DNA of 64,000 nucleotides, taken from a virus. Below the pieces are notes generated by a model. It made no database searches. It was not told the DNA's origin and worked only from the letters and a program-made list of their open reading frames with translations. Below are positions 10,395 to 28,255 of the stretch, one piece after another. Made by a program: the position numbers and the translations under genes. The first letter of the stretch is position 1. The number at the start of each line of letters is the position of its first letter. The stretch is taken from positions 2,167-66,166 of the IMG/VR virus record IMGVR_UViG_2816332652_000003, one strand, 5' to 3'.

Positions 10395-10434
10395 AATTCG
10401 GGGGTATAGGCCCACCAAAGGAGAGATAACACAC

Positions 10435-10641: not shown

Positions 10642-10666
10642 GGCTACGGCCTCTAACCAAGGAGGG

Positions 10667-12063: not shown

Positions 12064-12083
12064 ATATATAGATGACACAAAAA
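11880..12083 (+). ncRNA. Putative TnpB omegaRNA scaffold plus guide (guide begins at 12064: ATATATAGATGACACAAAAA)
   Basis: ~155-nt non-coding tract after tnpB with hairpins (TAGGATTCGTTGTATCCGAATTTA) ending in GCAACGG. TnpB omegaRNAs derive from the element's right end plus flanking DNA. Confidence 0.7.
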
Positions 12084-12178
12084 AATAATAAATCAAAAAA
12101 ACCAATAAATGACATAAATAAATAAAAAAACAAAAAGAGATAAGGAAATGTTCCTAATCACCTTGAGGAGGTAAAGCA

Positions 12179-12802
12179 TTGAACAACGATGATGTAGTTG
12201 TAGTAGTCAATCGAGAAGATTTCGAGGATACAAATAAAATCATTCAACTTAACTTTTTTTCTGACGTGGACGAAGTAGATATCCGCAAAACCAAATGGTT
12301 ACTTGGAAAATATGTCGACATGGTGGACATTATAAAAAATTATGAATTTTCGCTTCAGCAGATTGAAAACGGGATGTCAGGATACGAGTTATTGTCTGCG
12401 GAGGGTTCGGTTGCTAAACGTGAATCTGGACATGAACTAACTGCTGATGTCACAGCGAACGCGGTAATTATGAAAGACAAGCGGCACGCAAACTACAAAC
12501 TTTATGTAGCAATATCCAACAATGTCCGATTTGCAATAAACAATTTAAGAGATCCACACGAAGGGGTAACAGCTAGATTGCTATTTTTGGAAGGTAAAAA
12601 ATACTTGAAAGCGCAGGAGTATATGGAGAAAGGATATCGAAAGGACGTTCCTGGTATCGCGGCGACTACATTTGCAGATAAGCGGCGCAGGGCCATAGCT
12701 AACATAGCTAACAGTCTTAAATTCAATCGAACTTTAGATTTTGTAGTAATAGATTATGGACGGGGGCGAAGTAAAGAAGGAGAGGTTGGTTTAAAAATGT
12801 AG
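12179..12802 (+). CDS. ArpU/RinA-like late transcriptional activator
   Basis: Position at the end of the early region; C-terminal sigma-region-4-like helix (ARLLFLEG...DKRRRAIANIANSL). Confidence 0.65.
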   Translation: MNNDDVVVVVNREDFEDTNKIIQLNFFSDVDEVDIRKTKWLLGKYVDMVDIIKNYEFSLQQIENGMSGYELLSAEGSVAKRESGHELTADVTANAVIMKDKRHANYKLYVAISNNVRFAINNLRDPHEGVTARLLFLEGKKYLKAQEYMEKGYRKDVPGIAATTFADKRRRAIANIANSLKFNRTLDFVVIDYGRGRSKEGEVGLKM

Positions 12803-12904
12803 AGGTGTATTAAGGTATTTTTAAAAGGAAATTTAATTAATTTCCTTTTAAAAAATCCTGATTTGAAAATATAATAAAAAAACAAACAGAGAGGGTGCTC
12901 TAAA

Positions 12905-13732
12905 TTGAATCTTGACGATGATTCTAAAATAAGTCTATTAAGAATTACATTAGGTTATTTAGAAAAAGAATTAAATCGAAAGAAAAATGAAGTGGAGATG
13001 CTAAAGCAGATGCATCAAAACATTAATAAGCTCGGGGCTAAGTTGGAAAGTGTCTTAGTTTTAAATAAATTAGCCACCAAATTAACCATGAATTCTTACT
13101 TTATCCACGCTACTCCGAAAGTCACATATGATGGAATATCGAAGAAAAGACCGGGTGGTATAGAATTTGGAGATGTTCTGTACATTTATACTGAAGGTGA
13201 TAAGCAAAATAAGATTAGAGAGAATGCGATGCTGTATCAGGCAAAATTGTTTAGTTCCAGTAAAGTAGATGAACATCAATTGAAGTTGTATACTAAATGG
13301 TCGCCTTTTAGTCTCCTTAAAGAAAAAAATCGAAAATATGTGTTGAATACTAATTCAAATCCTCATCCAGGAGCGAGATATCTACTCCTAGATACTAGTA
13401 CACTGAACAAAAAATTCGCTTCAACTATGACACCAGAAGATAATCTTAGAGCAAATCGAAATGATAGCTATTTAGAGAATGATTTAGTTGGGTTGTTAGA
13501 TTTTAGTAGAGGGAAAGAGCTGACAGGAGAGTGGGGGGATGCAATAAACAAAGTTAGGGACGAGATAATAACTAATAATCTTTCTAAAAGTGGGTTCGTA
13601 AAAAATCAAGCTCTGTCTTTATTATCAGAAGGACAAGATAATAATTTGAATGAAGAGATTATGAAAAATGTTGATGTAAAAGGTTTTTGGTTAATACATA
13701 TAGTATCTGAAGTGAGTAACACTGTAGATTAA
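12905..13732 (+). CDS. Accessory AT-rich protein with a PD-(D/E)XK-like motif
   Basis: EFGDVLYIY...AMLYQAK; noticeably AT-richer than its neighbours. Confidence 0.55.
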   Translation: MNLDDDSKISLLRITLGYLEKELNRKKNEVEMLKQMHQNINKLGAKLESVLVLNKLATKLTMNSYFIHATPKVTYDGISKKRPGGIEFGDVLYIYTEGDKQNKIRENAMLYQAKLFSSSKVDEHQLKLYTKWSPFSLLKEKNRKYVLNTNSNPHPGARYLLLDTSTLNKKFASTMTPEDNLRANRNDSYLENDLVGLLDFSRGKELTGEWGDAINKVRDEIITNNLSKSGFVKNQALSLLSEGQDNNLNEEIMKNVDVKGFWLIHIVSEVSNTVD

Positions 13733-13774
13733 GTATAGACTAATGAAAAAGTGTAGTTTGTTTGTAGTAAATCC

Positions 13775-13793
13775 ATGTTATCTTAAATCCATA
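13775..13793 (+). promoter_or_regulatory. Late-promoter-like motif, copy 1
   Basis: ATGTTATCTTAAATCCATA (TGn + -10-like hexamer + CATA); similar motifs at 19306 and 22428. Confidence 0.45.
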
Positions 13794-13807
13794 TAATAAC
13801 GTATTCG

Positions 13808-13836
13808 AAAAGGTCGCTCATTCGAGCGGCCTTTTT
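13808..13836 (+). terminator. Intrinsic terminator-like hairpin
   Basis: AAAAGGTCGCTC-ATTC-GAGCGGCCTTTTT. Confidence 0.75.
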
Positions 13837-13853
13837 GCATTGGAGGAAAGAGT

Positions 13854-14024
13854 ATGGAAGTTAACTATTACAGTAGGAATGAGCCAGCTATACCCGGAGT
13901 TTCGGATAAGCAGCCAGAGCAGTGTCGTGGTTGTGGTTGGGGGACATGGACGGGAGTGAATCAATTATGTATTATGCCGAGATGTTGGAAGGAGAACCAT
14001 GATCCAGAGAAGGTGATGAAATGA
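13854..14024 (+). CDS. Cys-rich micro-protein, copy 1 (56 aa)
   Basis: RBS GGAGG; KQPEQCRGCGWGTWTGVNQLCIMPRC; stop overlaps the recombinase ATG. Confidence 0.65.
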   Translation: MEVNYYSRNEPAIPGVSDKQPEQCRGCGWGTWTGVNQLCIMPRCWKENHDPEKVMK

Positions 14025-14581
14025 GAAAAGTACAGCCGATCCGCGATGAACGGGTTATAGATGGAATGAAAGAATACTTCTATATACGAAGTAAGCGAAA
14101 TTACTTATTTTTTTGTATGGGCATATACAGCGGACTTCGAGTATCTGACTTGCTCGAACTCAAGGCGTGGCAAACTAAAGGGACCCATATCAGTATGGTT
14201 GAGCAGAAAAATAAGCATGCGAAGACTTTTATTATCCATCCGAGTATAAGAGAGGATCTGGACGAATTCACTGCTGACATGCGACCAACTGATTATCTGT
14301 TTGCTAGTCGTCAGATTAAAACGATCAGCCGTATGCGAAATAAACCGATCGATCGGACAACTGCCTATCGTTTTTTACACGAAGCAGCTCAGGAATTCAG
14401 GTTAAAGGATATCGGAGTCCATTCATTGCGGAAGACATGGGCATATAGGCTCTACATGGACAATCCTGAGAACCTAGCGTTACTAATGGATATGTTTGGA
14501 CACAGCGATCCAAGGGAGACTTTGGACTATATCGGGCTGACTCAGGACATGATGGACAAGGCAATCTTGAATTTGAGGTGA
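14021..14581 (+). CDS. Small tyrosine recombinase (catalytic domain only, XerC/D-like)
   Basis: GLRVSDLL (R), HSLRKT (HxxR), FGHS, and Tyr in TLDYIG. Confidence 0.92.
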   Translation: MRKVQPIRDERVIDGMKEYFYIRSKRNYLFFCMGIYSGLRVSDLLELKAWQTKGTHISMVEQKNKHAKTFIIHPSIREDLDEFTADMRPTDYLFASRQIKTISRMRNKPIDRTTAYRFLHEAAQEFRLKDIGVHSLRKTWAYRLYMDNPENLALLMDMFGHSDPRETLDYIGLTQDMMDKAILNLR

Positions 14582-14586
14582 ATTTA

Positions 14587-14701
14587 GTGCAACACAATAC
14601 GGTTTATATTGCACTCATTTTTCAATTAGGAAGACATTAGATGAAGAAACATGTTTTTTCATGCCTGAAATGAGTGCAACAGAATTACCTTTATGTTTCA
14701 C
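14587..14701 (+). repeat. Two directly repeated dif/lox-like 11-6-11 sites
   Basis: GTGCAACACAA-TACGGT-TTATATTGCAC (14587-14614) and GTGCAACAGAA-TTACCT-TTATGTTTCAC (14674-14701), 87 bp apart. Confidence 0.7.
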
Positions 14702-14843
14702 TCAACTTACATTATTTAGTGAATATGAGTACAGAACAACAGCCTGCGATTCAGACGGAGGCTTATTTTGATTCGTAACGTTTGACTATTACTGACCTTA
14801 AATAGGAATTCCAACTCAATTACATGAAAGTGGTGATAATTTT

Positions 14844-15572
14844 GTGAGCAGGAAGCAGAATCCGAATCGTAAGAAGGCGTTCAAAATTTGGAAAGATAGT
14901 GGCGCTGTGATGAAGCCGAAAGAGATTGCGGAAAAGTTGGGCATCACATCTGAGTCAGTCCGGAAGTGGAAGTCACTTGATCAATGGGAAGGAAAGATGG
15001 CGAATGCTAAACCCGGTGCTCCTCGTGGCAATCAGAATGCTAAAGGTAATCGAGGTGGTAAAGGCGGTCCGCTCGGGAATCAGAAAGCTGTAACACATGG
15101 ATTGTTCCGTAAGTTCGAGCCGCAAGATCCTGAGTATTTAGAACTCATAGATATTGTTCAGCAAATGGAACCTATAGACATGATCTGGCATAACATCACT
15201 CAGGGATTCCGTAAAATCATTTGGGCGCAGCGTATCTTCTTCATCAAAGACAAAGAGGATATGACGAAAGAGTTGAAAAGGGAGAAACCAGGTGAGTATG
15301 GAGACGAATACGAATGGGAAATTCAATTCGCTTGGGATAAATATGCGAGTTTCATCAAGGCAGAGGCTACAGTCATGCGTGAGATCAGGGGAGCTATCAA
15401 ACAATTCCTTGATATCGCGCCGCAGGAAGATGAGCGCCGATTGAAACTGGATCAGATGCAGGCCAAAGTCGAGAAAACCCGCCTTGAGATTGAAAAACTG
15501 AAGAATGGTGATGGAGATACCGAGGATGATCTGATCGAAGATTGGGTGAAGGCGGTGGAAACTGGTGAGTAA
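14844..15572 (+). CDS. terS: Terminase small subunit
   Basis: N-terminal HTH (KEIAEKLGITSESVRKWK), GAPRGNQNA motif; overlaps terL. Confidence 0.88.
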   Translation: MSRKQNPNRKKAFKIWKDSGAVMKPKEIAEKLGITSESVRKWKSLDQWEGKMANAKPGAPRGNQNAKGNRGGKGGPLGNQKAVTHGLFRKFEPQDPEYLELIDIVQQMEPIDMIWHNITQGFRKIIWAQRIFFIKDKEDMTKELKREKPGEYGDEYEWEIQFAWDKYASFIKAEATVMREIRGAIKQFLDIAPQEDERRLKLDQMQAKVEKTRLEIEKLKNGDGDTEDDLIEDWVKAVETGE

Positions 15573-17019
15573 AGAGTCTCCACAAACTAAACGCAGATTC
15601 GCTGCATTCAAAAAACGTATTCCCGAGTACCGGAAGAATCCGGTTCTTTTTTGCGTGGAATTACTGAAATTTACTCCTGATGAGTGGCAAGCAGAAGTAA
15701 TGATGGACATAGCTGGAGGTCCGCGAGTGTCGGTGCGATCTGGACAGGGTGTTGGAAAGACCGGCCTTGAGGCTGCGGTGGCATTATGGTTCCTATCGTG
15801 CTTCCCGTTTCCGAAGGTTATCTGTACTGCACCGACTCGTCAGCAGTTGCATGATGTCTTATGGGCTGAGATTAGCAAATGGCAAGAGAAAAGTCCGTTG
15901 CTTAAACGGATACTCAAATGGACAAAGACTAAGATTTACATGCGAAATTATGAGGAACGCTGGTTTGCTACAGCCCGGACAGCTACCAAGCCCGAGAACA
16001 TGCAGGGTTTCCATGAGGACTACATGCTCTTTATTGTGGACGAAGCTTCCGGGGTTGAAGATCGTATCATGGAGGCTATCCTGGGGACGCTCTCGGGTGA
16101 ATTTAATAAGCTGCTAATGTGCGGGAACCCAACTCGGACCAGTGGTGTATTCTATGACTCTCACAACAGGGACCGGGCAGATTACAACACGCACAAAGTT
16201 TCCTGTCTGAACAGTCCTCGGACAAGTAAAGAGAACATAGCCATGCTTGAACGAAAATATGGTAAAGGATCTGATGTATGGCGTGTCCGAGTTGAAGGGG
16301 AGTTTCCGCGGGGCGAGTCAGAAACCTTTATCGCTCTGGAAGTGGCTGAGTTTGCTACCAAAGATGTAACCTTGGAACCGTCTGGAGATACCTTAACCAT
16401 CGGCTGTGACGTTGCCCGTTTTGGTGATGATGAAACATCTATGTACGCGGGGATAGGCCCAGTAACAGTTGGGCAGCATCATCATTTCAAGAAAGACACA
16501 ATGGTTACTGCTGGCTGGGTGTTGAACTTAATAAGAGAATTGCTTCCGCAGTTTCCAGAAGTCGTTCATACGAGAATCAGGATAGATGATACAGGTGTCG
16601 GTGGTGGTGTGACTGATCGGTTGAATGAAGTAATAGCAGAAGAAGGACTTCCGTATGAATTAGTTCCAATAAATAATGGATCGTCATCTTTGGATGAACA
16701 TTATGGAAACCTGGGCGCAGAAATGTGGGCGCATATAAAGGGACAACTGGAACAAAACATGAGCAATTATATAAACAATGAGTCCGCGGTCTTACAACTT
16801 CCTGATGATGATGTATTGACCTCCCAATTGACTACGAGAAAATGGTCAATGACCAGCAAAGGTAAGATACTTCTTGAAAGCAAGAAGGATATGAAAAAAC
16901 GTGGTCTCAAGTCACCGGATAGGGCTGACGCATACGTTCTCACCTTTGGTGAATATTTGCTGGGGGCACCTCAGTCAATAATGCTTCCAACAATAGGAGG
17001 TGTATCAATAAAAAGATAA
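15565..17019 (+). CDS. terL: Terminase large subunit (resembles the P1 PacB type)
   Basis: VRSGQGVGKT, LFIVDEASGV, GNPTRTSGVFYDSH, nuclease IGCDVARFGDD, SPDRADA. Confidence 0.95.
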   Translation: MSKESPQTKRRFAAFKKRIPEYRKNPVLFCVELLKFTPDEWQAEVMMDIAGGPRVSVRSGQGVGKTGLEAAVALWFLSCFPFPKVICTAPTRQQLHDVLWAEISKWQEKSPLLKRILKWTKTKIYMRNYEERWFATARTATKPENMQGFHEDYMLFIVDEASGVEDRIMEAILGTLSGEFNKLLMCGNPTRTSGVFYDSHNRDRADYNTHKVSCLNSPRTSKENIAMLERKYGKGSDVWRVRVEGEFPRGESETFIALEVAEFATKDVTLEPSGDTLTIGCDVARFGDDETSMYAGIGPVTVGQHHHFKKDTMVTAGWVLNLIRELLPQFPEVVHTRIRIDDTGVGGGVTDRLNEVIAEEGLPYELVPINNGSSSLDEHYGNLGAEMWAHIKGQLEQNMSNYINNESAVLQLPDDDVLTSQLTTRKWSMTSKGKILLESKKDMKKRGLKSPDRADAYVLTFGEYLLGAPQSIMLPTIGGVSIKR

Positions 17020-17089
17020 CAAGAAACTTTGAAATCATATTAAGAGGGAGGGTGATTATAAAGTAACTTGAATCTTCAATAAAACTGAT

Positions 17090-17391
17090 CTGCTGCGGGC
17101 AAGACGGCAAACGCTACGATTCTTATAGAGAAACAGCGCTGGGTGTACAAAAGATAGGACTTCTATACACACCAGTTGGAAAGGGCGCAGCGGCTAATCA
17201 AAGACGAAGAAGCCCGTAAAGCCGTTGATTACAGATACATTCAAGGTTATTCACGCAAAGAAACGATACTCTTCTTCCGGCGCGCTCTCAATGATAGTAC
17301 AATCAAGCGCAAGATCGATGAGGGGCTGGAGAGTGTCGCAAATACCTTGAAGCTAATCGGCTTTTTTGAGCAAGATGATGCAGAATACTAA
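17090..17391 (+). pseudogene. Relic of a second ArpU-like regulator (5' truncated, internal TAG)
   Basis: KTANATILIEKQRWVYKR*DFY...EGLESVANTLKL aligns by eye with VTANAVIMKDKRHANY...IANIANSLKF of 12179-12802. Confidence 0.65.
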
Positions 17392-17427
17392 AAGAGAAGC
17401 TGACGATTAATCGTCAGCTTCTCTTTT
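17390..17427. terminator. Perfect 38-bp palindrome, bidirectional terminator
   Basis: AAAAGAGAAGCTGACGATT/AATCGTCAGCTTCTCTTTT between convergent genes. Confidence 0.85.
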
Positions 17428-17435
17428 TTGCACTG

Positions 17436-19154
17436 TTATCCTTTAATGAAATCTTGCAGTTCGCTCTTAAAGAATTCCAATTTTTCTGGAGTGTTGTTTA
17501 ACACTAATTCAGTCAGTTCCATTCCATGAACTATTTTATTGTAGTGTAAAGAGTAACTTTCAAATAAGCGTTCTAACACTTCACTTCCAACGACATCTTT
17601 TAATACATTTGTAGAACCTTTTTTAGGGAATAATTTATTGTCATCGATTGATAATAATAAATGGTCGATTTTGCTCTTTATTAGATCTGGATCTGCAGCA
17701 GCTATTGATAAATTTCGATTAATGATTTCAGAAAGCTCATGATAACAGTCTAAAAAGTAGTTCTCGTACTCTCGTCGTCCCAAGATAATTATACTATCTC
17801 CATAGCTTTCTCTTAATGTGAGAAGTTTTTCGTCGGTTTTGTTATCTGCATCAATAATTATTTTATAAGGTATTGGACTCTCTGATATGCCACTTAGAAT
17901 TAAGTCAAGTTTGCCTTTATACGCTCGCATAGAAGAATTCTTATTAAAATAATTACCAGTTCCCTTCATATTTAATATTCTGTAATTATAACCAATCTGT
18001 TTTAAGCCGAAATGAGTGAGGATCATCGGAATTACAAGTTCCTCAGTTTGTCCTTCTACAAATATTACTTTATCAGATAAAGCAAAGTCACTATTACTAA
18101 CACCTATATCAGACAACACTTCTTGAATATGTTCTAACTGTGTGAAGGAACTTATCCCATTCAACTTACTTACATGAATTAAATATTTATCAGATGGATA
18201 ATTAATTAAAATAGGGGAATGCGTAGTGAATACAAACTGGTGTTCATTGCTATCGCTTACTAAATCATAGATGGCCTTCTCGGCAGAAGGATGTAAGAAT
18301 ACTTGTGGCTCATCAAATAGAACTATACTGTTTTCTTTTGTATAGAGTACACACAATAGTAATAAAACGTGAGTATAGCCACTTCCGCAATCTGATAAGG
18401 GAATTGGCGTATCTAAGCCTTCGAAGGATACACTTATAAAAGTCTGGTTACCTCCATCAATAGGAGTCCTAATAGTTATAACGTCAGTAAATATTTGTTT
18501 AAACGTTTCCACAATTTTATCAAAAGTTTCTTCTTCATTATTGTGCATAGAGTAAAGAAACCCATTAAGATTTGTCCCATCAATTTTTAAGTAATTGTTT
18601 AAAGTTGAAGTCTCAGTCGAAGGTACATGTCTAGAACCAGTTATATAAACAATTTTCTTGTTTAAAAGGTTCATGAAATTAGAAATAAATGTACTATTGG
18701 GGACTAATACGCTGTCTTCTTGATCGGGTATCACGAACATATATTTTGGAGCTACTCCAACTTTATGATAATTACTGTTAATGTAAACATCTTGAAAATG
18801 ATCGTTGTAGTATCCTTGTACTTTATTAAAAACTGTCACATTATGACTATTGAAATATCTTAAAAAAAGTCTGAACTTTTCTGAATACTGGATTGTAAAT
18901 CCTGGAGGTACATTATCATTTAGATAATTTACTTCTTCGTCTGACAAGGATAATTCTAATTCAATTTCGGTTGATTGAGTATCTAAGGCCGGGGAGTTTA
19001 GCATACCTTGTAGAACTTTATACAACGCTTCAATGAAAGCTGATTTACCTGTATTATTTTTACCTGCTAAAACATTCATTTTATTATGTAATTTAATCTC
19101 TCCTGAATCATCGATACTTTTGTGATTTTTAATACGAACGTTAAGAATTATCAT
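17436..19154 (-). CDS. OLD-family ABC-ATPase + TOPRIM nuclease (candidate anti-phage gene)
   Basis: Walker A GKNNTGKS, signature LSDCGSG, Walker B LFDEP, H-loop TTHSP, TOPRIM VEGQTEE and IIDAD; start set at ATG 19154 with its RBS. Confidence 0.88.
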   Translation of the reverse strand: MIILNVRIKNHKSIDDSGEIKLHNKMNVLAGKNNTGKSAFIEALYKVLQGMLNSPALDTQSTEIELELSLSDEEVNYLNDNVPPGFTIQYSEKFRLFLRYFNSHNVTVFNKVQGYYNDHFQDVYINSNYHKVGVAPKYMFVIPDQEDSVLVPNSTFISNFMNLLNKKIVYITGSRHVPSTETSTLNNYLKIDGTNLNGFLYSMHNNEEETFDKIVETFKQIFTDVITIRTPIDGGNQTFISVSFEGLDTPIPLSDCGSGYTHVLLLLCVLYTKENSIVLFDEPQVFLHPSAEKAIYDLVSDSNEHQFVFTTHSPILINYPSDKYLIHVSKLNGISSFTQLEHIQEVLSDIGVSNSDFALSDKVIFVEGQTEELVIPMILTHFGLKQIGYNYRILNMKGTGNYFNKNSSMRAYKGKLDLILSGISESPIPYKIIIDADNKTDEKLLTLRESYGDSIIILGRREYENYFLDCYHELSEIINRNLSIAAADPDLIKSKIDHLLLSIDDNKLFPKKGSTNVLKDVVGSEVLERLFESYSLHYNKIVHGMELTELVLNNTPEKLEFFKSELQDFIKG

Positions 19155-19305
19155 TATCTCTACCTCTATTCTTTTTCTATTAAACACAACAATACCATTA
19201 TAGTCCATCTTAGTATGTAATTAAGAGAGTGAATTATTGACCCAAATGAGAACCCTACATGACCTCGTTTAGAGATCATGTTGAACCCCACAAGACTATT
19301 TTCCC

Positions 19306-19325
19306 GTGATACATTAGGAACATAG
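19306..19325 (+). promoter_or_regulatory. Late-promoter-like motif, copy 2, preceded by TTGACCC/TTGAACCC repeats
   Basis: GTGATACATTAGGAACATAG; repeats at about 19238 and 19281. Confidence 0.5.
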
Positions 19326-19460
19326 AAAAAGGTGCGAATGAAATGCACAGCCGCACATACGGCATATGACTGGGACGTTCCTATTCTCGCCTTTTCTATT
19401 TTCAGGATTATCATTCCGTGAGCTTCAACGATATGATCATGTCGAGGTAATGCTCGGTAT
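19322..19460 (+). ncRNA. Putative structured RNA leader
   Basis: Closing stem ATAGAAAAAGG(19322) with CCTTTTCTAT(to 19399) encloses hairpins GCCG-CACATA-CGGC and GTGC..GCAC; a second GAGC..GCTC domain follows. Confidence 0.4.
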
Positions 19461-19503
19461 GATATGTAGCAAGAAGACGTTCCATTGAGAGAGGAGAAAG
19501 ATA

Positions 19504-19767
19504 ATGGATTCAACTATTAATGAGGAATTACAAGAAACAGCAATTGCATTTCTAAAGTGGGCTAGAAACACGCTTGAGAATGAGCCAGCTAATTTCGAAA
19601 CAATGAATTTGGTCCCTCAAGTTTCAGAAGTAGCTTGCACTATAATTACTCACTTAAGAGATCAGGGAGCTGGAGAGAGCCCTGAACATTATGTTCAAAA
19701 GCTCCAGCAACCACAAATAAAAGAATTAATATGTAAGACTATTTCTGAGTCTCTAAATAAGTTGTAA
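19504..19767 (+). CDS. Hypothetical accessory protein
   Basis: Strong RBS GAGAGGAG. Confidence 0.6.
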   Translation: MDSTINEELQETAIAFLKWARNTLENEPANFETMNLVPQVSEVACTIITHLRDQGAGESPEHYVQKLQQPQIKELICKTISESLNKL

Positions 19768-19987
19768 GTTCTTTGTGATATTGTTTTAGAACTTTGTTTG
19801 TCAATGAAGCTGATGCAGCTAATGTAATAGACGAAAGCATAATTAGTTCGGCGCGATCACCTACAAGTGATTGTAAACTTGCATAATTAGGTCCTTTTAT
19901 CGCTTCGTTAAGATTGTCTACAATAGCATCGGTTAATTCGGAAACCAATTCCTTTGTAACTCTATCAAAATCAAATTCAAAACTCAT
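19739..19987 (-). CDS. Hypothetical accessory protein
   Basis: RBS AAGGAGAG on the minus strand; 3' end overlaps 19504-19767. Confidence 0.6.
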   Translation of the reverse strand: MSFEFDFDRVTKELVSELTDAIVDNLNEAIKGPNYASLQSLVGDRAELIMLSSITLAASASLTNKVLKQYHKELTTYLETQK

Positions 19988-20339
19988 GTTTAATCTCTCC
20001 TTAAATAAAGTGTTGTGTGCAAATTACATTTTAGCAGAAAGAGGAAATAGCATGTTGGACTAATTACGAATTAGCAAGCAATCCGTAGTAAATGACGGGT
20101 TTGTTCCAGCTCATCGGGACTCACCCGTTTTCTGTTCCTTGACCTGCATATGGTAGCTTCAGTAAAATGGTCTTGTTCTTCCTCTAAAGTTACATAGTAC
20201 GTATGCATTTAAAGCAAAGAGCGTAGCGTTTTTGCGGCGACCGTTTCGGGCGCATGCTTTTAAGACGTATCACCAACATAATACATATCATTTTAAAGTC
20301 GTTCCTTATGGATCGGCTTTTTTTATTGGAGGAATTGAA

Positions 20340-20495
20340 GTGATCAGCAGCAGAAGACGGAAGAAGCAACGCATCCGTCTCAACAAGCAGCCAGAGAAAT
20401 GCAAAGGATGTGTATGGGGTAGATGGGATGGAGTGAAGCAGTTCTGTAGTAGACCTGTCTGCCCAAAAGAGGTAAAATATCCCTATCATATTTGA
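20340..20495 (+). CDS. Cys-rich micro-protein, copy 2 (51 aa, GTG start)
   Basis: Preceded by a terminator and GGAGG; KQPEKCKGCVWGRWDGVKQFCSRPVC. Confidence 0.65.
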   Translation: MISSRRRKKQRIRLNKQPEKCKGCVWGRWDGVKQFCSRPVCPKEVKYPYHI

Positions 20496-20512
20496 CATGG
20501 AAGGGAATTTAG

Positions 20513-21151
20513 ATGAGCGAAATTGATTATACTGGCTTGCTATTAATACCAGTAGCTACTGCACTCCTTACTACAGGAGCATTGTTAATTAAAGAATGGT
20601 TTCAAAGTAGCAATGCTACCAAAAGGGCTCTAACCGAGAAAAAGTTGGTTGAACTTTACAACCATTTGTACAGCACGGTTATTCGATACGAAGGAAGGTT
20701 GAGCATAAAATATAATAAAGAAGTCTATGATGTTGATCCGAACGGAAAAGAGATGTATAGGGAGATACCTGAGGCCGAAGATCCTGAAGTATGGGAAGAA
20801 GCTATCCAAAACGTCTCAAATGAAATTTATAATAAGATACATCTTTTAGAATATGATGATCTTGTTCTATGGCTTAAAGTTGAAAATGGTGCTCAAGAAG
20901 AATATGCACTGGAAGAACACTCTGTTAATAAAGCCCTGTCATATCGGAATTTTAGCAAAAATGTTAAGAAAAGCTATGGCCGATTATATAACGAATTCCA
21001 TTTAAGCACCCGAAAAAGGAAGAAAGCGAGAATCAAAGATATAAAAATCAGTATAAAGAATTTAAAACGAAATCCGTTTCTTGAGAAAGACGAGCGTAAG
21101 AAACAGAAAAAGAAGTTAAAAAAAGAAATTAAAACTATCAAGAGAACGTAG
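20513..21151 (+). CDS. Accessory protein with N-terminal TM helix and basic C-terminus
   Basis: GLLLIPVATALLTTGALLI; Lys/Arg-rich tail. Confidence 0.7.
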   Translation: MSEIDYTGLLLIPVATALLTTGALLIKEWFQSSNATKRALTEKKLVELYNHLYSTVIRYEGRLSIKYNKEVYDVDPNGKEMYREIPEAEDPEVWEEAIQNVSNEIYNKIHLLEYDDLVLWLKVENGAQEEYALEEHSVNKALSYRNFSKNVKKSYGRLYNEFHLSTRKRKKARIKDIKISIKNLKRNPFLEKDERKKQKKKLKKEIKTIKRT

Positions 21152-21325
21152 CACCCACAGTGGTGCTTTTTCTTTTGCTCTCATATGACAGAATGTGAGT
21201 CGGTTTAAGCTTCTCAGCATGAGAACGTCCGTTTGTAAGGATCAAACCATTGAAGAGCGGAGAACACCGTCTGATTGAGCGTACGCACGAATATGAAGCT
21301 CACCCAAACGTCGAAACCAACTCAA
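21150..21325 (+). repeat. ~175-nt conserved non-coding element, copy 1 (terminator + structured tract)
   Basis: Clearly homologous to 25427-25600. Confidence 0.8.
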
Positions 21326-21392
21326 CACAAATATTTATGTTCCTTCGCTCACATTTTGGAGGAAAAGGCTTGTTTTTGTTGAATTATTGTAG

Positions 21393-21941
21393 TTGAGGAG
21401 GGATTATATGGATATTCAAAAGTATCTTGATTCATTAAACAGCTCTGGTAAACACCATCTCGTTTTGGTTGTTGCTCCTAAAGGTGAATTTCCAACAGAT
21501 ATTATTGATCAAAAGTATTTGATGTTTGAGAAAAGCATTTTGAAAAATCCTAAATCTTATATAGGACTCTATGAAAATGAATTAGATGAGATTATGCAAT
21601 TCACAGCATTTCGGATATTTTTAAAAGATGAAGTAACTGATCACTACAATCTCCCATATAGCACTGTTGAGGGAAAGAAACGCGCGACCTCAGAAGAAGT
21701 TCTGAATTTCTTTGTGGTTAAGGAATTTTATAATCATGTGCCTCATGGAAATAAAAGTGAGGAAGATGCAATAACCGAAGGGACAGAGTCTGGAAGGGAA
21801 TTCCTGAAGAAGTACAATAATGATGAATACGAGTATGTTATCACTTCTTTGGGTAAGCACAGCAATGCTGCAAATGTATTGCTTGATATCAATTTCACGT
21901 CCAACGAGGCTTATCACTTCGACAAGGTTTATATTTATTAA
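21393..21941 (+). CDS. Accessory hypothetical protein (weak likeness to a relaxase fold)
   Basis: EFLKKYNNDEYEYVITSLGKHSNAANVLLDIN resembles MOBP motifs II-III without the His triad. Confidence 0.55.
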   Translation: MRRDYMDIQKYLDSLNSSGKHHLVLVVAPKGEFPTDIIDQKYLMFEKSILKNPKSYIGLYENELDEIMQFTAFRIFLKDEVTDHYNLPYSTVEGKKRATSEEVLNFFVVKEFYNHVPHGNKSEEDAITEGTESGREFLKKYNNDEYEYVITSLGKHSNAANVLLDINFTSNEAYHFDKVYIY

Positions 21942-22029
21942 GAGCTACAACTGTAATATACAAAGATGAAGGACTGACCAAAAGGTTAGTTCTTTTTTTG
22001 TTGCCACATTACTATAGGAGGTAGAGGAT

Positions 22030-22209
22030 ATGAACATCAGAATCGTGCCAATTGATCAGATTAATGCAGCAGCCTACAACCCCCGTGTTGACCTTCAACC
22101 TGGTGATGTTGAATATGAGAAGCTTCGCCGCAGTATAGAGGAATTCGGTTATGTGGAGCCGATTGTCTGGAATGAACTCACAGGGCATATGGTCGTCGGT
22201 CATCAGTGA
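22030..22209 (+). pseudogene. Truncated ParB-like phage gene
   Basis: YNPRVDLQPGDVEYEKLRRSIEEFGYVEPIVWN...VVGHQ then TGA where Arg is expected. Confidence 0.8.
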
Positions 22210-22213
22210 TACA

Positions 22214-22396
22214 AGAAAATACTCAATGAACAGCAAGGGTAAGATATTACTTGAAAGTAAAAAGAACATGAAGAAGCGCGGATTAAAATCACCGGACAGA
22301 GCTGACGCATATGTTCTCACCTTCGGTGAATATTTGATGGGAACACCACAGTCTATAATGCTTCCGTCAATAAGTAGTATGTCAATAAAAAGGTAA
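22214..22396 (+). pseudogene. Second, diverged copy of the terL 3' end (60 codons)
   Basis: 51 of 60 residues identical to the TerL C-terminus; many additional synonymous differences. Confidence 0.92.
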
Positions 22397-22427
22397 ACTG
22401 AAGATTCGATATCTCAGTCTTATAGTA

Positions 22428-22448
22428 GTGATAATATAAAGAGCATAG
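22428..22448 (+). promoter_or_regulatory. Late-promoter-like motif, copy 3
   Basis: GTGATAATATAAAGAGCATAG. Confidence 0.45.
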
Positions 22449-22800
22449 CAAACACACTAAAGGATTGAAGAATGCTTTGGCCCTCCCAAAGGGAAGGTAT
22501 GTTGGCAATCGAATGACCGTGAAACAGCAATACATCTAGGCAGAGAGGTTATGCCCTCTCCGGTGTGCCTAGTGCCCGTTATCGTACTATGACTCAAGCA
22601 TGCTGAGTGACCCAACAAGATTTTTAGTGACATCTTGCAGATGTGGCGGTGTTGGCGTGGGGGAAAGCGGATAGGATAATCGCTATTCTATTGTATCCTA
22701 TCAAGTGTAGCTGGAGGCATGTCCCTCCAAGGACTACTAGAAGGTTTGAATATGCTTTGCTCCTTCTTAGTGAGACATCCAAACGGGTGGTTCTTTTTTG
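22445..22800 (+). ncRNA. Putative large structured non-coding RNA (~350 nt)
   Basis: No credible ORF; at least 7 hairpins in series, ending in a U-tract terminator. Confidence 0.5.
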
Positions 22801-22877
22801 ATACTTGAACAGAGAGGGAACTGGAAGATGTTGTCGAATAATAACTAAAAACATCTAATTAAGGGGTTATAGACAAC

Positions 22878-24209
22878 ATGAAATTTTTATTTCCTGGTTA
22901 TTATAAACTTACTAACGTTGAATTAAGAGAATTGTGGGAAAGATGTAATTTTGTACTTGACACTAATACTCTGCTTAATCTTTTTAGATACCCAAAAGAA
23001 ACGAGTAACGTTATGTTGAAATTGCTCGAAAGTATTAAAGATAGGATTTGGATTCCGCATCAAGTAGCGCTAGAGTATCATAGAAATCTGGAAACGGTAT
23101 TATATGAACAAAAGAATGAGTACGAAACTCTTGAGAAAGAATGTATGTCTGAACTTTCTAAACTTATTTCAAAATTTAAAAAATTAAGACATTCTCATAT
23201 AAGTACTAATACTATGGTGCAGACATTAGAACAAAGTAGTGAAATCATAAGAAAAGAATTATCAAATCAACGTGAACAGCAACCTGATTTACAGGAAATA
23301 AAAAAAAGAATCAACAACTTGGTAGGAGAAAATATAGGATCACAATTTGAACAAGCTGAGTTGGTTAAAATATTCGCAGAGGGGGCTCAAAGGTACGGAA
23401 ATAAAGTCCCTCCTGGATATATGGATTCTAAGAAAAACTTCTCTTACCTTCATAATGGTATTGAATATCAGGCAGCATATGGAGATTTGATTTTTTGGAA
23501 ACAGACTCTAAAATACGCTCAAAATAAAGAGGTTAGTTCTATCATTTTAGTAAGCGATGATAGAAAAGAAGATTGGATTCTAGAAGTATCTGGTGAGAAA
23601 AAAGGAATACATCCGTACTTAACAAATGAATTTCATGATCAAAGCAAAGGTAAGTTATTTAACTCGTATAACTCTGTTCAATTTATTAGTGAAGCTGAGC
23701 ATTTTTTAGGATTTAAGAGTAGTGCAATTGTAAGTGATGTCATAAAGGAAATTGAAACTGTTTATAGTAAGGCGGATTCTTTCAAGGATAGTGAGAATCT
23801 AACTTATAATAATACTTTTAAGGAAAAATATAATTATAGAGAAAGACTCTATGATCATTATCTTGAAGATAAAAAGCGCAGAATAGGTGAAACAGAGTTT
23901 TACTTTTATAAATTTTTCTTTGACGTGAGTAAATCTTTTGTTGAAACAGAGGAAAGGAACAGCAATTCAGTTTATAATTCTAATAATCATAACGCTTTCC
24001 CAGTTATACTTAAAAAAATTGTAAAAGATTATATTATTAATGCCGAAATAGTTGAGATCAAATATGAAGGCGAATTTCTTACTGTAATAGTTGCAACTCC
24101 TTTTGAATTTGAATATTCTTCAATAGATAATCTAGCGGAAGCTATTAGTAAAGAAATGAATCAATACTATACTGAAGAAACTATTAGATTATTAAGAATA
24201 TTTGTCTAG
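22878..24209 (+). CDS. PIN-like domain protein (DUF4935 type), candidate defence RNase
   Basis: FVLDTNTLL, IWIPHQVALEY, YGDLIFW, VSDDRKEDW. Confidence 0.85.
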   Translation: MKFLFPGYYKLTNVELRELWERCNFVLDTNTLLNLFRYPKETSNVMLKLLESIKDRIWIPHQVALEYHRNLETVLYEQKNEYETLEKECMSELSKLISKFKKLRHSHISTNTMVQTLEQSSEIIRKELSNQREQQPDLQEIKKRINNLVGENIGSQFEQAELVKIFAEGAQRYGNKVPPGYMDSKKNFSYLHNGIEYQAAYGDLIFWKQTLKYAQNKEVSSIILVSDDRKEDWILEVSGEKKGIHPYLTNEFHDQSKGKLFNSYNSVQFISEAEHFLGFKSSAIVSDVIKEIETVYSKADSFKDSENLTYNNTFKEKYNYRERLYDHYLEDKKRRIGETEFYFYKFFFDVSKSFVETEERNSNSVYNSNNHNAFPVILKKIVKDYIINAEIVEIKYEGEFLTVIVATPFEFEYSSIDNLAEAISKEMNQYYTEETIRLLRIFV

Positions 24210-24590
24210 TAATTTAACTATGTTAAAACATTCTCTCTTTAATGAATGGTTTCTTTTATGTGTTCCGTGTTAAAGGTAAAAGCTTTCCAAAATGACCCTG
24301 ATATGTGACAGCTGAATTAGTAAATCAATATGCATACAAGAAGTGATATTAATTTGAATCTCGGCAAGAATAATGTGCCCTTTAATAGTCGATGGCCATT
24401 TCTAAGCCTGCATTCCCAATTGATTATGAAAAGAGGGGGAGGGAAAGAAAATGCCTAAAGTTACGTATAGATCAAAATTTTAGATGCCGCTACAGCTGAG
24501 GATGGGACAATAGATGAGTACAGTATGGGTTAAACCTATTGGAAAGCGACACCTAAGTTCGGATGCAATCAAAGAGCCACCTGTACCTTG

Positions 24591-24680
24591 ATGCAACCAG
24601 ACAAATGCAAAGGTCTCGTATGGGGCAGATGGGATGGAGTAAAGCAGTTTTGTAGTAATCCCTTTTTTTGAAAAATTTAA
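24591..24680 (+). pseudogene. Cys-rich micro-gene, copy 3 (degenerate)
   Basis: MQPDKCKGLVWGRWDGVKQFCSNP; the second Cys is replaced by Leu and the last Cys is missing. Confidence 0.7.
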
Positions 24681-24710
24681 AATAAACAAAATGAAGGGGG
24701 TGAGAGTGAC

Positions 24711-25427
24711 ATGGATAAACGGAAAGATTTATCAGCGCTGACTAACTTACTTGAAATTGATCCTGAATCGACTTTTAGCACAGCAATTGAATATACTATA
24801 AACCAGATGCCTTTTATAGGAAAGGTGTACAACACTTTGAAAATGAGGGCATTTGAGAAGAAAATAAATCGCTTAGAATCAAGATTGCATGTCTTATCTA
24901 ATCATTTATTGGAAAGGCCTGACGACCTCGTTAGTCAGTTCATTAAAAACAGAGCATTTCCCTTTATGTTAGATCAATTGTTAGAAGAACAACAAGAAGA
25001 AAAAACAGATTTGATAATGAATGGAATAGAATACATTTATGAACAAAGAATAACTGAAGAAAATAAGATGTTAATGCATTTTGATATTCTAAAAGAACTA
25101 AGAGTCAATGAGCTTAAATTCCTCTTAAGATTTACAGAGGAAGCTAAAGAAGTTGCTAGTAAAGAAGATCAACATGAGGAACCATCAGAAGATGAATGGA
25201 TTTACTATGAGTACATTATGACTCATCTCGAAGCACTAGGACTTATTGATACAGACGAAAGTTCTATTAATGTAACCAAGTTTAATATTGTAACTATTTT
25301 AAATGATATAGCTGCTAGTAAAGGGAAATATACCATACGTGCAACTCGACCGAGGCTAACAAAATTCGGGCATGAGTTTGTGAAATTTTTCGATTTAAAG
25401 TCATTAATAAGATTACCTGCACAGTAA
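24711..25427 (+). CDS. DUF4393/Abi-alpha-like accessory protein
   Basis: MPFIGKV...DILKELRVNELKFL...HLEALGLI...RLTKFGHEFVKF winged-helix-like ending. Confidence 0.55.
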   Translation: MDKRKDLSALTNLLEIDPESTFSTAIEYTINQMPFIGKVYNTLKMRAFEKKINRLESRLHVLSNHLLERPDDLVSQFIKNRAFPFMLDQLLEEQQEEKTDLIMNGIEYIYEQRITEENKMLMHFDILKELRVNELKFLLRFTEEAKEVASKEDQHEEPSEDEWIYYEYIMTHLEALGLIDTDESSINVTKFNIVTILNDIAASKGKYTIRATRPRLTKFGHEFVKFFDLKSLIRLPAQ

Positions 25428-25600
25428 GCACCCAACCGTGGTGCTTTTTCTTTTGCTCTCATATGATTAATATGAGCCGTTTTAAGCTTTATTCAGCAAG
25501 AATGTATTTGCAGGGATCAACCCGTTCAAGAGCGGAGAAGAGGCGCTGAGTGAGCGTATCCACGAATATGAAGCTAGTTCAGAAGTTGAAACCAACTCAA
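25427..25600 (+). repeat. ~175-nt conserved non-coding element, copy 2
   Basis: Homologous to 21150-21325. Confidence 0.8.
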
Positions 25601-25664
25601 TTTAAATAAGGATATTTTTGTTTATTTATAGTAAAATAATTACAAAAAATTAGGAGTTGGTATA

Positions 25665-26483
25665 GTGAGCACGTTTACTCAGAAGGAAGTCAAAAGAGCC
25701 ATCAGAGATTTTGAAGTTATTGCGACTTCTTTACTTAATGCTTCTTCGACTCATTTTTCAGCTAGAGTCACTCAATTTATTGATTTTATAGAAAGGAACC
25801 TTGTTATTAACTCAGTCCTAGGAGAATACCTTAATCTCCCAATAAATATTGAAGATATTGAATCGGATGAATCTGGGTGGTTACAGGTTTCTCTGCCTTC
25901 TGAGATGGACTATCAGATCGCATACATTTTACAGACTCTTGTATCTTTTAGACGGGATGAGAATGCTGTAATTAACTACACATTCCATCTATATAAAAAT
26001 AAAGGTATAGATTATAATATTCAATTATTTAATGAGGATATGTTGCAACCGATTGTACGGGAGATTTTTAATAGGTTAGAGGATTTAGTTGAAGACGAAG
26101 TTGAGGGGAAGGATAATATCCCGAGTTCCTCCTTATCTATTACACATATTGGAGATATTATCGCACATACAGGTAGTAATATTGCAGTAGGCAAGAACAT
26201 AACTCAAAATTTGAAAACAGGTGACATACGAACTGAAATCATAGATAAGCTCAAGGAACAAGGTGCTATTCCTGAAGATAAGATATCTGAAGTAGAGCCA
26301 ATAATTGCTGAGATTGAAGAGGTGTTAAGTGATGAGAGTAACCCTAATTCCGGAAAATTAAAAGATTTAGTTGGGAAAGTATACAACCTTGGAAAAAACG
26401 CTGCTTTAACTGTATTTAAGGATACTATAAAAGATCCACGCTGGTCTTCAGCTATCGCAGATTTCTTCCTTGGAGGAAACTAA
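25665..26483 (+). CDS. Accessory hypothetical protein
   Basis: 272-aa AT-rich ORF with RBS; no recognised motif. Confidence 0.7.
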   Translation: MSTFTQKEVKRAIRDFEVIATSLLNASSTHFSARVTQFIDFIERNLVINSVLGEYLNLPINIEDIESDESGWLQVSLPSEMDYQIAYILQTLVSFRRDENAVINYTFHLYKNKGIDYNIQLFNEDMLQPIVREIFNRLEDLVEDEVEGKDNIPSSSLSITHIGDIIAHTGSNIAVGKNITQNLKTGDIRTEIIDKLKEQGAIPEDKISEVEPIIAEIEEVLSDESNPNSGKLKDLVGKVYNLGKNAALTVFKDTIKDPRWSSAIADFFLGGN

Positions 26484-26763
26484 GATAAAAAGTTGCGATA
26501 CTATAAATAGTTGTTGACTTATCAGCAAAGAAAAGTCATTCCAACATTAGCGGTAAGATGCTTAATATAAACATAATCAAATCATGCTGTGATGGGAGAC
26601 TGTTGCAACTTTTTTTAGTGGGGGGGAGGTATGAGGATTGATGATTAAATCCGTAGTAACACTATAGTAACTCGATGATATTATTAATCCATAGAAGTAT
26701 GAAGAACTTTAGAAGGTAAGGAAACTTTTCCTGCCTTCTATTTTTATGTCTGGAGGTGAAACA

Positions 26764-28212: not shown

Positions 28213-28255
28213 GAAAGAAGAGAGTTTATTACATGAAGGAGGTGAAAAGGAGTAG

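Follow-up and report, generated by a model that had tools for sequence, protein, structure and literature searches.

P2-like phages and P4 satellites carry known hotspots for defence genes (Rousset et al. 2022, PMC9122126). The old/tin locus of P2 lies between gpA and the portal gene, adjoining cos, and exchange by recombination during co-infection has been proposed for the P2/P4 hotspots; activity of the DUF4238 family was shown in the same study (PMC9122126). Lambdoid phage morons provide a further point of reference (Juhala et al. 2000; Cumby et al. 2012, both via the citation in bioRxiv 10.1101/2024.10.15.618418). Here we compare with these systems an island located between terL and the portal gene in a 64,000-nucleotide stretch of viral DNA (the window). 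We consider it probable that the terL-portal junction is an insertion-tolerant hotspot in which relics of a foreign "type-2" late-control module form a scaffold and ordinary recombination drives turnover. The island is a rich yet fairly ordinary instance of phage mosaicism.

The terL-portal gap and the resident unit

The initial annotation drew attention to a 9.7-kb separation of terL and portal, and this distance is indeed found (terL 15565-17019, portal 26746-28212). Across 19 related loci the gap varies from 32 nt to 11 kb and contains 112 ORFs in 89 families, 75 of which are confined to one locus. The terL-portal gap of this family of Paenibacillus prophages is a fast-changing hotspot of accessory and defence genes. 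The functional late-control unit and the right-hand border comprise the following features:

12179-12802, forward: resident late-regulator candidate (type 1), 207 aa, PHROG 21810; opens the unit
12905-13732, forward: resident post-regulator cargo, 275 aa, no family
13854-14024, forward: Cys micro-gene copy 1, 56 aa, four Cys, intact
14021-14581, forward: mini tyrosine recombinase consisting of the catalytic domain, 186 aa
14844-15572, forward: terS, functional packaging gene of the resident unit
15565-17019, forward: terL, functional packaging gene of the resident unit
26647-26745, forward: conserved pre-portal element with hairpin and T-run (26711-26745); right-hand hotspot border
26746-28212, forward: portal gene, phrog_3753 match (8.5e-68)

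No Pfam or NCBIfam family was found for the type-1 regulator candidate, and the HMMs of these databases lend no support to the name ArpU used in the initial annotation. The candidate is ~25% identical to the type-2 protein, for which a model suggests a C-terminus resembling sigma-70 region 4. The protein encoded at 12905-13732 is rare and confined to Paenibacillaceae, and its gene was not found in the same slot of any relative examined. A hairpin with a T-run (13812-13836) is located upstream of micro-gene 1, the stop codon of which overlaps the start of the recombinase gene (ATGA). Homologues of this mini-recombinase adjoin ArpU-annotated genes in Bacillus phages. Three motifs previously described as late-promoter-like (13775, 19306 and 22428) have no detectable similarity to each other, and a promoter scan returned no more sites than shuffled sequence.

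Unit 1 as a probable relic of a foreign late-control region

The first part of the gap, unit 1 (17095-22396), consists of:

17095-17388, forward: type-2 late-regulator pseudogene, 5'-truncated, residues 69-166 of a 166-aa protein, 70% identity
17390-17427: perfect 38-nt palindrome between the regulator pseudogene and the OLD gene
17436-19208, reverse: OLD-family ATPase-TOPRIM nuclease, 590 aa, a single gene
19232-19405: conserved non-coding skeleton piece, counterpart at 7254-7379 of L170
20159-20324, forward: conserved non-coding leader upstream of micro-gene 2
20340-20495, forward: Cys micro-gene copy 2, 51 aa, GTG start, four Cys, intact
20513-21151, forward: 212-aa protein gene, N-terminal hydrophobic helix, no family or fold match
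21150-21335, forward: 175-nt element copy a, terminator hairpin and, after it, ~150 nt of conserved sequence without coding capacity
21393-21941, forward: unit 1 cargo B, 182 aa, no family
22030-22209, forward: ParB_N stub, 59 codons, abutting the terL stub
22210-22396, forward: terL 3' stub, remnant of a foreign terL allele, 62 codons plus stop

The order of these pieces matches the native pre-terS region of at least ten other Paenibacillus prophages, including L064, L073, L115, L128, L135, L136, L138, L145 and L170. This supports the earlier notion that the spacers are late-control relics, and unit 1 can therefore be regarded as what is left of a heterologous type-2 module for late control and packaging. 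Among the collinear phages, L064 and L073 have a different portal and L170 an unrelated Terminase_3 terL. Sequence comparison supports a different phage lineage, rather than self-duplication, as the likely source.

The regulator pseudogene that had been placed at 17090 is confirmed as a truncated relic, with the first 68 codons missing and one in-frame stop; full-length homologues occur in L073, L136, L145, L128, L121, L142 and L170. The adjacent palindrome is probably a bidirectional terminator. In the minimal native arrangement, the counterpart of 19232-19405 lies directly 3' of the type-2 regulator gene. The leader contains a ~75-nt block conserved in 15 genomes, a hairpin (20234-20253) with compensatory changes and a second hairpin with T-run (20298-20324). 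Intact orthologues of micro-gene 2 are present in the gaps of L007, L008, L092 and L093. The following gene (20513-21151) had been listed as cargo; this is weakened by homologues in the same post-micro-gene position of L064 (47%) and of the Paenibacillus lactis prophage L170 (78%), and the gene probably belonged natively to the captured type-2 module. No reading frame is open in all copies of the 175-nt element, and no covariation was observed beyond its terminator (fold z-score -0.48). Homologues of cargo B with 41% identity occur in the gaps of L018 and L021, and a terminator (21968-21995) follows the gene.

Both stubs at the end of unit 1 were found as annotated, and their junction is identical in L006/L091, L007 and L008. 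The duplicated terL 3' end (16833-17019 and 22210-22396) is 81% identical in nucleotides and 84% in amino acids over 62 codons, with the frame open. Stub and real terL differ with dS 1.05 and dN/dS 0.09, the stub versus stub value being ~0.41. The foreign lineage of the relics, as seen in both the divergent regulators and the terL stub dS, speaks in favour of the proposed capture of late-control segments followed by core decay.

Unit 2 echoes the middle part of unit 1

Unit 2 (22397-26745) repeats the order of the middle part of unit 1:

22397-22685: non-coding tract, 74-78% identical to the tract after the real terL in L006/L091
22878-24209, forward: PIN_8 (PIN-like) protein gene, 443 aa, 3e-55; cargo at the equivalent of the post-regulator slot
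24591-24671, forward: Cys micro-gene copy 3, 26-codon relic, two Cys lost
24711-25427, forward: unit 2 cargo A, 238 aa, rare; PF14337 present in one homologue (43% identity)
25427-25611, forward: 175-nt element copy b
25665-26483, forward: unit 2 cargo B, 272 aa, match to PADLOC candidate PDC-M14B (7.6e-17)

As reported initially, the 175-nt element occurs twice (79% identity between 21150-21335 and 25427-25611), as does the succession of micro-gene, first gene (A), element and second gene (B), with genes lacking detectable similarity between the copies. The Cys micro-gene is likewise present three times, but only the copies at 13854 and 20340 are intact. Homologues of the PIN_8 protein are found in the gap of L014 and in the native slot between regulator and micro-gene of L138. 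Both ends of unit 2 have been lost, and the case for a second captured module therefore comes down to gene order and two short repeats (79-86% identity). Three stacked generations remain a fair description of the anatomy, although the order of events, be it capture or replacement of an older resident module, we only infer.

Slot occupants differ between relatives

The claim that variable cargo lies between skeleton pieces is borne out: rather than the same fixed cargo, different genes fill the slots in nearly every relative. The post-regulator slot holds 85 families across the 42 loci compared, the slot between micro-gene and element at least 8 distinct occupant sets in 10 instances, and the slot after the 175-nt element 10 families in 11 instances. 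Within the window itself, the post-regulator slot is occupied by 12905-13732 in the resident unit versus the OLD nuclease in the relic unit, as first noted. The OLD gene (AAA_15 9e-22, OLD-like_TOPRIM 1.4e-6, PADLOC Old 1e-21, GajA 1e-22) was found in no relative's gap.

Most cargo has no family match. Window cargo with family support includes the OLD, PIN_8 and PDC-M14B proteins, while relatives contribute Mrr, SIR2/DUF4917, Schlafen, protease, DUF4238 and HEPN families. The assertion that each unit carries defence-like genes is weakened, only three of the seven cargo genes being demonstrably of this kind.

Cargo of 2-6 kb is present in the gaps of L009, L018, L022, L032, L101 and L119, all devoid of type-2 late-control pieces there, and the type-2 scaffold is hence unnecessary for hotspot activity. 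In three of these six, the only skeleton remnant in the gap is the conserved element upstream of the portal. This element is doubled in L097 and also in L014, where the copies flank the PIN_8 homologue. The closest relative changes with the piece considered: L008 for the terL stub (92%) and L092 for the leader (94%). The gene after the portal is 99% identical in L092 versus 61-71% elsewhere.

Alternative origins of the island

Unit 1 might be a discrete mobile element inserted Campbell-style at the terL 3' end. Such an element would bring its own terL 3' end, so that the essential terL would stay intact; the model fits the 187-nt terL 3' direct repeats bracketing 5.2 kb, and it too predicts the purifying selection on both terL copies. 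It is nonetheless unlikely, given that no integrase or recombinase was detected in unit 1 or in the larger gap ORFs scanned in relatives, that the close relatives L090, L092 and L093 share gap skeleton pieces without any stub, and that in L006 the tract that should come after the stub is found behind the real terL. Furthermore, the content of unit 1, with its pseudogenes, lines up with a phage late-control region.

Highly variable genes flanked by short conserved pieces also call to mind a dedicated integron-like cassette system, in which a recombinase, e.g. the 186-aa mini tyrosine recombinase, acts on repeats at cassette borders. Although the resident unit does carry this gene, translationally coupled to a micro-gene copy, its two 28-bp sites (14587-14614 and 14674-14701) lie only beside it, with no others in 64 kb at up to three mismatches. 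No other repeat family of at least 20 nt occurs at cargo borders, no recombinase gene was detected among the island's main ORFs in the window or among 20 of the larger gap ORFs of relatives, and homology breakpoints scatter by tens of bases. Turnover is moreover seen in relatives lacking late-control pieces. The integron-like mechanism put forward initially is thus unsupported, and we regard it as very improbable.

If the phage had duplicated its own late-control region in tandem and the copy had then decayed neutrally, the recurrence of regulator, micro-gene and terL end in resident-unit order would be accounted for. This reading is largely refuted and barely credible: the relic regulator is of the other type and only ~25% identical to the resident one, micro-gene 2 shares 60% identity with micro-gene 1 versus 94-97% with the gap copies of other genomes, and the resident unit contains no equivalent of ParB, leader or 175-nt element. 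The dN/dS between stub and real terL also argues against it.

An assembly chimera or chance similarity has a negligible probability, and the chimera is rejected, since independent contigs from three other studies (four runs) match 16500-27000 with zero differences, 96-99% of sampled words of 16800-26790 are present in runs from seven studies, among them the two from which this DNA may originate, the sole contig break coincides with the 38-nt palindrome, three other genomes have the same ParB/terL junction, and the repeat E-values (3e-45, 8e-34, 3e-14) are far below chance.

Proposed model

Returning to a hotspot scaffolded by foreign relics, the anatomy suggests that a second late-control and packaging module from a type-2 phage came to lie beside the resident module. 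The captured module would have begun with the regulator, continued with leader, Cys micro-gene, 212-aa gene, terminator element and ParB-methylase, and ended with terS and terL. Redundant core genes would then have been lost, by truncation of the regulator and by a single deletion from ParB codon 59 to terL codon 424, leaving non-coding pieces, the micro-gene and the module's pre-existing variable slots (after the regulator, between micro-gene and terminator element, and after the element). Unit 2, placed between stub and portal, may be another copy of the middle part of this module that has eroded further.

Cargo would be swapped when related prophages that reside in the same host or co-infect it undergo ordinary recombination, both homologous and illegitimate, with conserved pieces presumably acting as homology patches rather than as part of a dedicated site-specific system. 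The OLD nuclease gene on the reverse strand and the forward genes enclosed by terminators appear to behave like morons. They are probably expressed independently and probably useful to the lysogen, partly as anti-phage defence.

Discussion

The island resembles the P2/P4 hotspots in its conserved core flanks, with the portal at one side and the packaging region close by, in gene content that turns over very extensively between close relatives, and in the recombination during co-infection proposed for exchange. An OLD-family nuclease is part of the cargo, and a DUF4238 protein occupies a native slot of the relative L073. The island differs in its Paenibacillus host and phage lineage, in its position between terL and portal, and in an internal scaffold of second late-control module relics that splits it into sub-slots.

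Lambdoid morons are similarly accessory genes among late genes, here bounded by terminators (21150, 21968 and 25426). Some of these accessory genes are encoded on the other strand, pointing to expression that does not depend on the late operon. Relative to lambdoid morons, promoters are not demonstrable in this locus (the scan being at shuffled level), several units with homologous non-coding pieces are stacked, and a conserved small Cys4 protein gene accompanies the scaffold.

Like an integron, the island lines up unrelated genes with short conserved pieces between them. Unlike in integrons, no integrase was found among the main ORFs of the array, its borders carry no attC-like repeat and its breakpoints are not sharp, while the conserved pieces are gene and leader relics. 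Each piece of this scaffold has a traceable origin in a module native to other genomes, and the island's sub-slots can be compared across at least ten genomes.

Setting of the terL-portal island

The window covers most of a 67.5-kb provirus record, the nearest relatives of which are prophages of Paenibacillus amylolyticus, P. xylanexedens and other Paenibacillus strains (terL identity 92-97%). Gene order on the + strand opens with replication and methylase genes, followed by a TnpB insertion, a 207-aa regulator candidate and the terminase genes. A gap of 9.7 kb, referred to here as the island, separates terL from the portal gene.

Resident features around the island (window coordinates)
10795-11907, +, solo TnpB gene (OrfB_IS605 plus Cas12f1-like TNB domain), with the methylase region on one side and the regulator gene on the other
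11958-12021, after the TnpB gene, RAGATH-18 RNA (Rfam, 66.7 bits, E 1.3e-11)
12179, +, regulator candidate, 207 aa, of the resident late-control module
12905, +, orphan gene, 275 aa, in the resident slot after the regulator
13854-14024, +, Cys micro-gene 1, 56 aa, its stop overlapping the start of the recombinase gene
14021, +, tyrosine recombinase, 186 aa, catalytic domain only, next to micro-gene 1
14844, +, terS, upstream of terL
15565-17019, +, terL, 9.7 kb before the portal gene
26746, +, portal gene, after which the head and tail genes follow

The RAGATH-18 RNA adjoining the TnpB gene was the sole Rfam match over 9000-29000 (E up to 1), and a DNA search of the phage collection with the whole island returned zero matches. 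Two further repeats lie downstream: a 97-nt direct repeat in an AT-rich region near the prophage right end (54570-54664 and 59078-59173, 87% identity), and an internal repeat at 45401-45807 (offset 138 nt, ~72% identity) within a 532-aa gene of the tail region (44723-46321).

Repeats and relics within the island

Three repeat families were borne out by self-comparison of the window. The last 187 nt of terL (16833-17019) recur as a stub with an open frame at 22210-22396 (81% nucleotide and 84% amino acid identity), a 175-nt element is present as two non-coding copies of about 175-185 nt at 21150 and 25427 (79% identity), and the core of the Cys micro-gene occurs at 13910, 20387 and 24593. Micro-genes 1 and 2 are intact Cys4 ORFs, while micro-gene 3 is a 26-codon relic. 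A 59-codon ParB_N fragment directly precedes the terL stub, and a pseudogene located right after the real terL (17095-17388, one in-frame stop) is 70% identical to residues 69-166 of a 166-aa protein that is intact in other genomes. At 24414-24437, a 24-nt stretch matches terL just upstream of its duplicated end (16822-16845, 79%); this may be chance or the trace of a further terL remnant in the later part of the island (unit 2, below).

The initial annotation described the genes between the repeated pieces as unrelated, and comparison among these intervening genes indeed shows zero similarity. Its three supposedly related late-promoter-like motifs could not be verified: they are mutually without detectable similarity, the short words common to them (TAGTAA-type, mostly in AT-rich cargo) carry zero signal, and promoter-like sites are no commoner than in shuffled sequence (50 sigma-70 sites versus 50.3 expected). 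The island is real DNA and not an assembly chimera, as 96-99% of sampled words of 16800-26790 are present in runs of seven studies, two of which may be where this DNA comes from. Contigs from three of those studies show zero differences over 16500-27000, with the only break at a perfect 38-nt palindrome (17390-17427).

Origin of the scaffold

The conserved relic pieces of the island, its scaffold, have counterparts in numerous Paenibacillus prophages whose terL is more distant (58-63% identity). In the related loci L064, L073, L115, L128, L135, L136, L138 and L145, the region leading into terS has, in functional form, the native order 166-aa type-2 regulator, non-coding block, leader, micro-gene, variable gene, first part of the 175-nt element, ParB-methylase gene, terS and terL. 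The native non-coding pieces correspond to 19232-19405 (block) and 20159-20260 (leader) of the window. The most compact form comes from a prophage of P. lactis, whose terminase is unrelated. Here a 2-kb stretch directly upstream of terS contains the regulator, the two non-coding blocks, the micro-gene, a gene for a protein 78% identical to the 212-aa one of the window, and both ends of the 175-nt element.

Because the first part of the island (unit 1, 17095-22396) has exactly this native type-2 order, we infer that it is the decayed remnant of such a module. Its regulator is truncated, and a single deletion has fused ParB codon 59 to terL codon 424. The resulting junction between ParB and the terL stub recurs in three relatives, namely L007, L008 and L006 (which is one record with L091), and therefore derives from one old event. 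The captured module was foreign to the resident phage. The relic type-2 regulator is only ~25% identical to the resident regulator, and most differences between the stub and the real terL are synonymous (dS 1.05, dN/dS 0.09), compared with a dN/dS of ~0.41 between stubs. The two terL ends had thus been evolving apart, each as a working gene of a different phage, when they came together.

The remainder of the island (unit 2, 22397-26745) opens with a tract which in L006 comes after the real terL. Next is a PIN_8 gene, homologues of which occupy the gap of L014 and, in L138, the native regulator-to-micro-gene slot. A micro-gene relic, a gene, the 175-nt element and a gene then repeat the order seen in unit 1. 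A second micro-gene copy 3' of the stub is also present in L006 and L008. Gene order and short repeats suggest that unit 2 is another such remnant, older than unit 1. The tract after the terL stub (22397-22800) is GC-richer and non-coding over ~400 nt, its first 290 nt being those conserved in L006, and has no Rfam match.

Variability of the island among related prophages

Homologous terL and portal genes bracket a gap in 19 loci, measuring 32 nt in L026 and 2.2-11 kb elsewhere. The gaps contain 112 ORFs of 80 aa or more, which fall into 89 families, 75 of them seen in one locus only. Relatives with a terL at 93-97% identity have almost zero cargo in common with the window, and none of its OLD, 238-aa and 272-aa genes recurs in any relative's gap across the 19 loci. 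The slot after the regulator gene holds 85 families over 42 loci. Where both flanks are present, the slot between micro-gene and 175-nt element has at least 8 different occupant sets in 10 instances, and the slot after the element 10 families in 11 instances. The initial annotation had named variable genes between the same pieces in relatives as a test of its reading, and occupants do differ nearly everywhere. The locus combines the same core flanks with strongly variable content, two properties of accessory and defence hotspots (Rousset et al. 2022). Six relatives carry cargo in the gap without any type-2 late-control piece, three of which keep only the element upstream of portal. These arrangements indicate that the terL-portal junction itself tolerates insertions, with the scaffold merely subdividing the island.

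Cargo genes

The window's cargo includes an OLD-family ATPase-TOPRIM nuclease, PIN_8 and PDC-M14B. The OLD-family architecture is complete (AAA_15 at residues 19-335, OLD-like_TOPRIM at 378-420), and the PADLOC Old and GajA models match too. A Gabija system (GajA with GajB) was rejected, as the UvrD-like helicase partner is absent: the neighbours of the OLD gene are a pseudogene and ORFs of 87 and 82 aa, far too short for a helicase. The 87-aa ORF has zero matches in Pfam, PHROG and PADLOC.

Cargo of the relatives comprises Mrr_cat, SIR2/DUF4917 (PDC-S21), Schlafen AlbA_2, subtilase, trypsin-like protease, MBL-fold, SLH and DUF5677 proteins. The families seen that bear on a possible defence role are OLD, PDC-M14B, PDC-S21/SIR2, Mrr_cat, subtilase, trypsin-like protease and MBL fold, with most ORFs lacking a match; when ten of the large ORFs in the L006 and L008 cargo were scanned against PADLOC and Pfam, nine had no family. 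In the native slot after the type-2 regulator of L073 (641-2553), two reverse-strand genes encode DUF4238 (2e-33) and HEPN_Cthe2314 (5e-23) proteins, an arrangement resembling that of the window, where the OLD gene is likewise on the reverse strand.

Only 6-10 homologues of the window's 275-, 238- and 212-aa proteins exist among 5.8 billion proteins. The predicted fold of the 212-aa protein (pLDDT 75.9) has zero PDB matches at E up to 0.001, and an atlas search returned unnamed clusters only. In L064 the micro-gene and the homologue of the 212-aa protein at first looked fused, but this was an ORF-calling artefact, the two genes being in different frames.

Late regulator and conserved small elements

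The 207-aa regulator had been labelled ArpU, a name that the profiles do not bear out: Pfam and NCBIfam models match neither this protein, nor the relic, nor five full-length relatives. In the predicted structure of the type-2 regulator (pLDDT 81.5), the last 63 residues can be superposed on ECF sigma factor region 4 (TM by target ~0.7, rmsd 2 A), with Foldseek E values of only 0.06-1. The phage families DUF1492 and DUF722 are among the atlas neighbours, as leads only, a profile built from the regulator alignment gave no significant match to solved structures (best E 0.49), and the 207-aa regulator and micro-gene 2 have zero matches among phage-collection proteins. The mini-recombinase at 14021 has two 28-bp sites downstream (14587-14614 and 14674-14701), their arms inverted, and its homologues, common in phages of Bacillus, Clostridium and Streptococcus, adjoin ArpU-annotated genes. 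From the sigma-like model, the atlas leads and these ArpU-annotated neighbours, a late regulator of sigma-like kind is therefore a reasonable assignment. The sigma-like domain, together with a position between replication genes and terS as in ArpU-type regulators, speaks for an ArpU-like mode of working, membership of ArpU itself being without profile support.

The micro-gene family consists of ~50-aa proteins with a basic N-terminus and a conserved KQPxxC..C.WG.W.G..Q.C....C pattern. It is present at >20 loci, always as the first gene after the leader upstream of packaging genes, and has zero matches in profile libraries and the phage collection. The leader block of ~75 nt, found at 20159-20260 and in 14 loci (e.g. 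L092 16568-16752, L135 6429-6524 and L170 7558-7649; 73-94% identity), is kept among phages whose terL is only ~60% identical and has no Rfam match. The hairpin after it (20234-20253) varies in sequence with compensatory changes. The block may represent a late-promoter leader or a protein-binding site. For the 175-nt element, a structured RNA was rejected, as covariation is confined to the terminator stem (fold z-score -0.48), as was a gene relic, with zero frames open across all copies.

T-run hairpins occur immediately before the start codons of micro-gene 1 (13812-13836), micro-gene 2 (20298-20324) and portal (26711-26745); if these act as terminators, late transcripts have to continue past them by read-through. 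Like morons, the cargo units have terminators of their own, with T-run hairpins at 21150, 21968, 25426 and 22776 and the palindrome at 17390; candidate promoters of their own did not stand out from the shuffled background in the sigma-70 scan.

Turnover of the cargo

There are strong signs of ordinary recombination in the comparisons between genomes. The nearest relative switches from piece to piece, real and stub terL ends do not form a clean two-group pattern, and flanks are swapped between real and stub copies in different genomes. The element upstream of portal is doubled in L014 (12822-12875 and 14220-14317) and L097 (5938-6048 and 7487-7590). In L014 the two copies flank the PIN_8 homologue, as though recombination at the element had brought this gene in.

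A Campbell-type integrative element residing in the terL 3' end would account for the direct repeat of the target 3' end at both borders (16833-17019 and 22210-22396). However, an integrase was not found among the main ORFs of the island, and the ends are not constant: L090, L092 and L093 have the skeleton without the stub, and the flanks are exchanged in L006. We consider it highly improbable that the type-2 scaffold (leader, Cys4 micro-gene and 175-nt element) is a portable docking module, actively promoting or licensing the capture and late expression of foreign genes, and not a passive relic. Such a role, possibly exerted through read-through control at the hairpins before micro-gene 1, micro-gene 2 and portal, or through an unrecognised recombination activity, would account for the persistence of an intact scaffold in many gaps despite decay of the neighbouring core genes. 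The initial annotation is largely upheld in its observations and partly in their interpretation. The integron-like array that it proposed is not supported: the main ORFs of the island lack a recombinase domain (the only one being upstream, at 14021), and the search for border repeats gave none.

Nothing found points to a dedicated turnover system: the 28-bp recombinase-associated site occurs window-wide only at 14587 and 14674, self-comparison of the window revealed no other repeats at cargo borders, and homology breaks differ by tens of bases between genome pairs.

Implications and relation to known systems

The island provides a concrete, traceable example of how a phage hotspot can form: the redundant copy of a module for regulation and packaging degenerates, while the variable slots it already contained persist as an accessory-gene island. 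The locus is easily found because it lies between conserved terL and conserved portal. With 89 gap ORF families, many without a family match among the ORFs scanned, it is a convenient hunting ground for new genes with roles in anti-phage defence or phage competition in Paenibacillus, a genus little explored for either. Three unannotated conserved elements merit functional work, namely the Cys4 micro-protein, the ~100-nt leader and the 175-nt element.

The closest known case to the Paenibacillus terL-portal island is the P2 old/tin hotspot, flanked by gpA and the portal gene and adjacent to cos, for which recombination during co-infection has been proposed as the means of exchange (PMC9122126). 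The moron concept (bioRxiv 10.1101/2024.10.15.618418) is also close to the island cargo. To these, the present comparison adds a scaffold traced piece by piece to a native module, and the resulting split of the island into several comparable slots.
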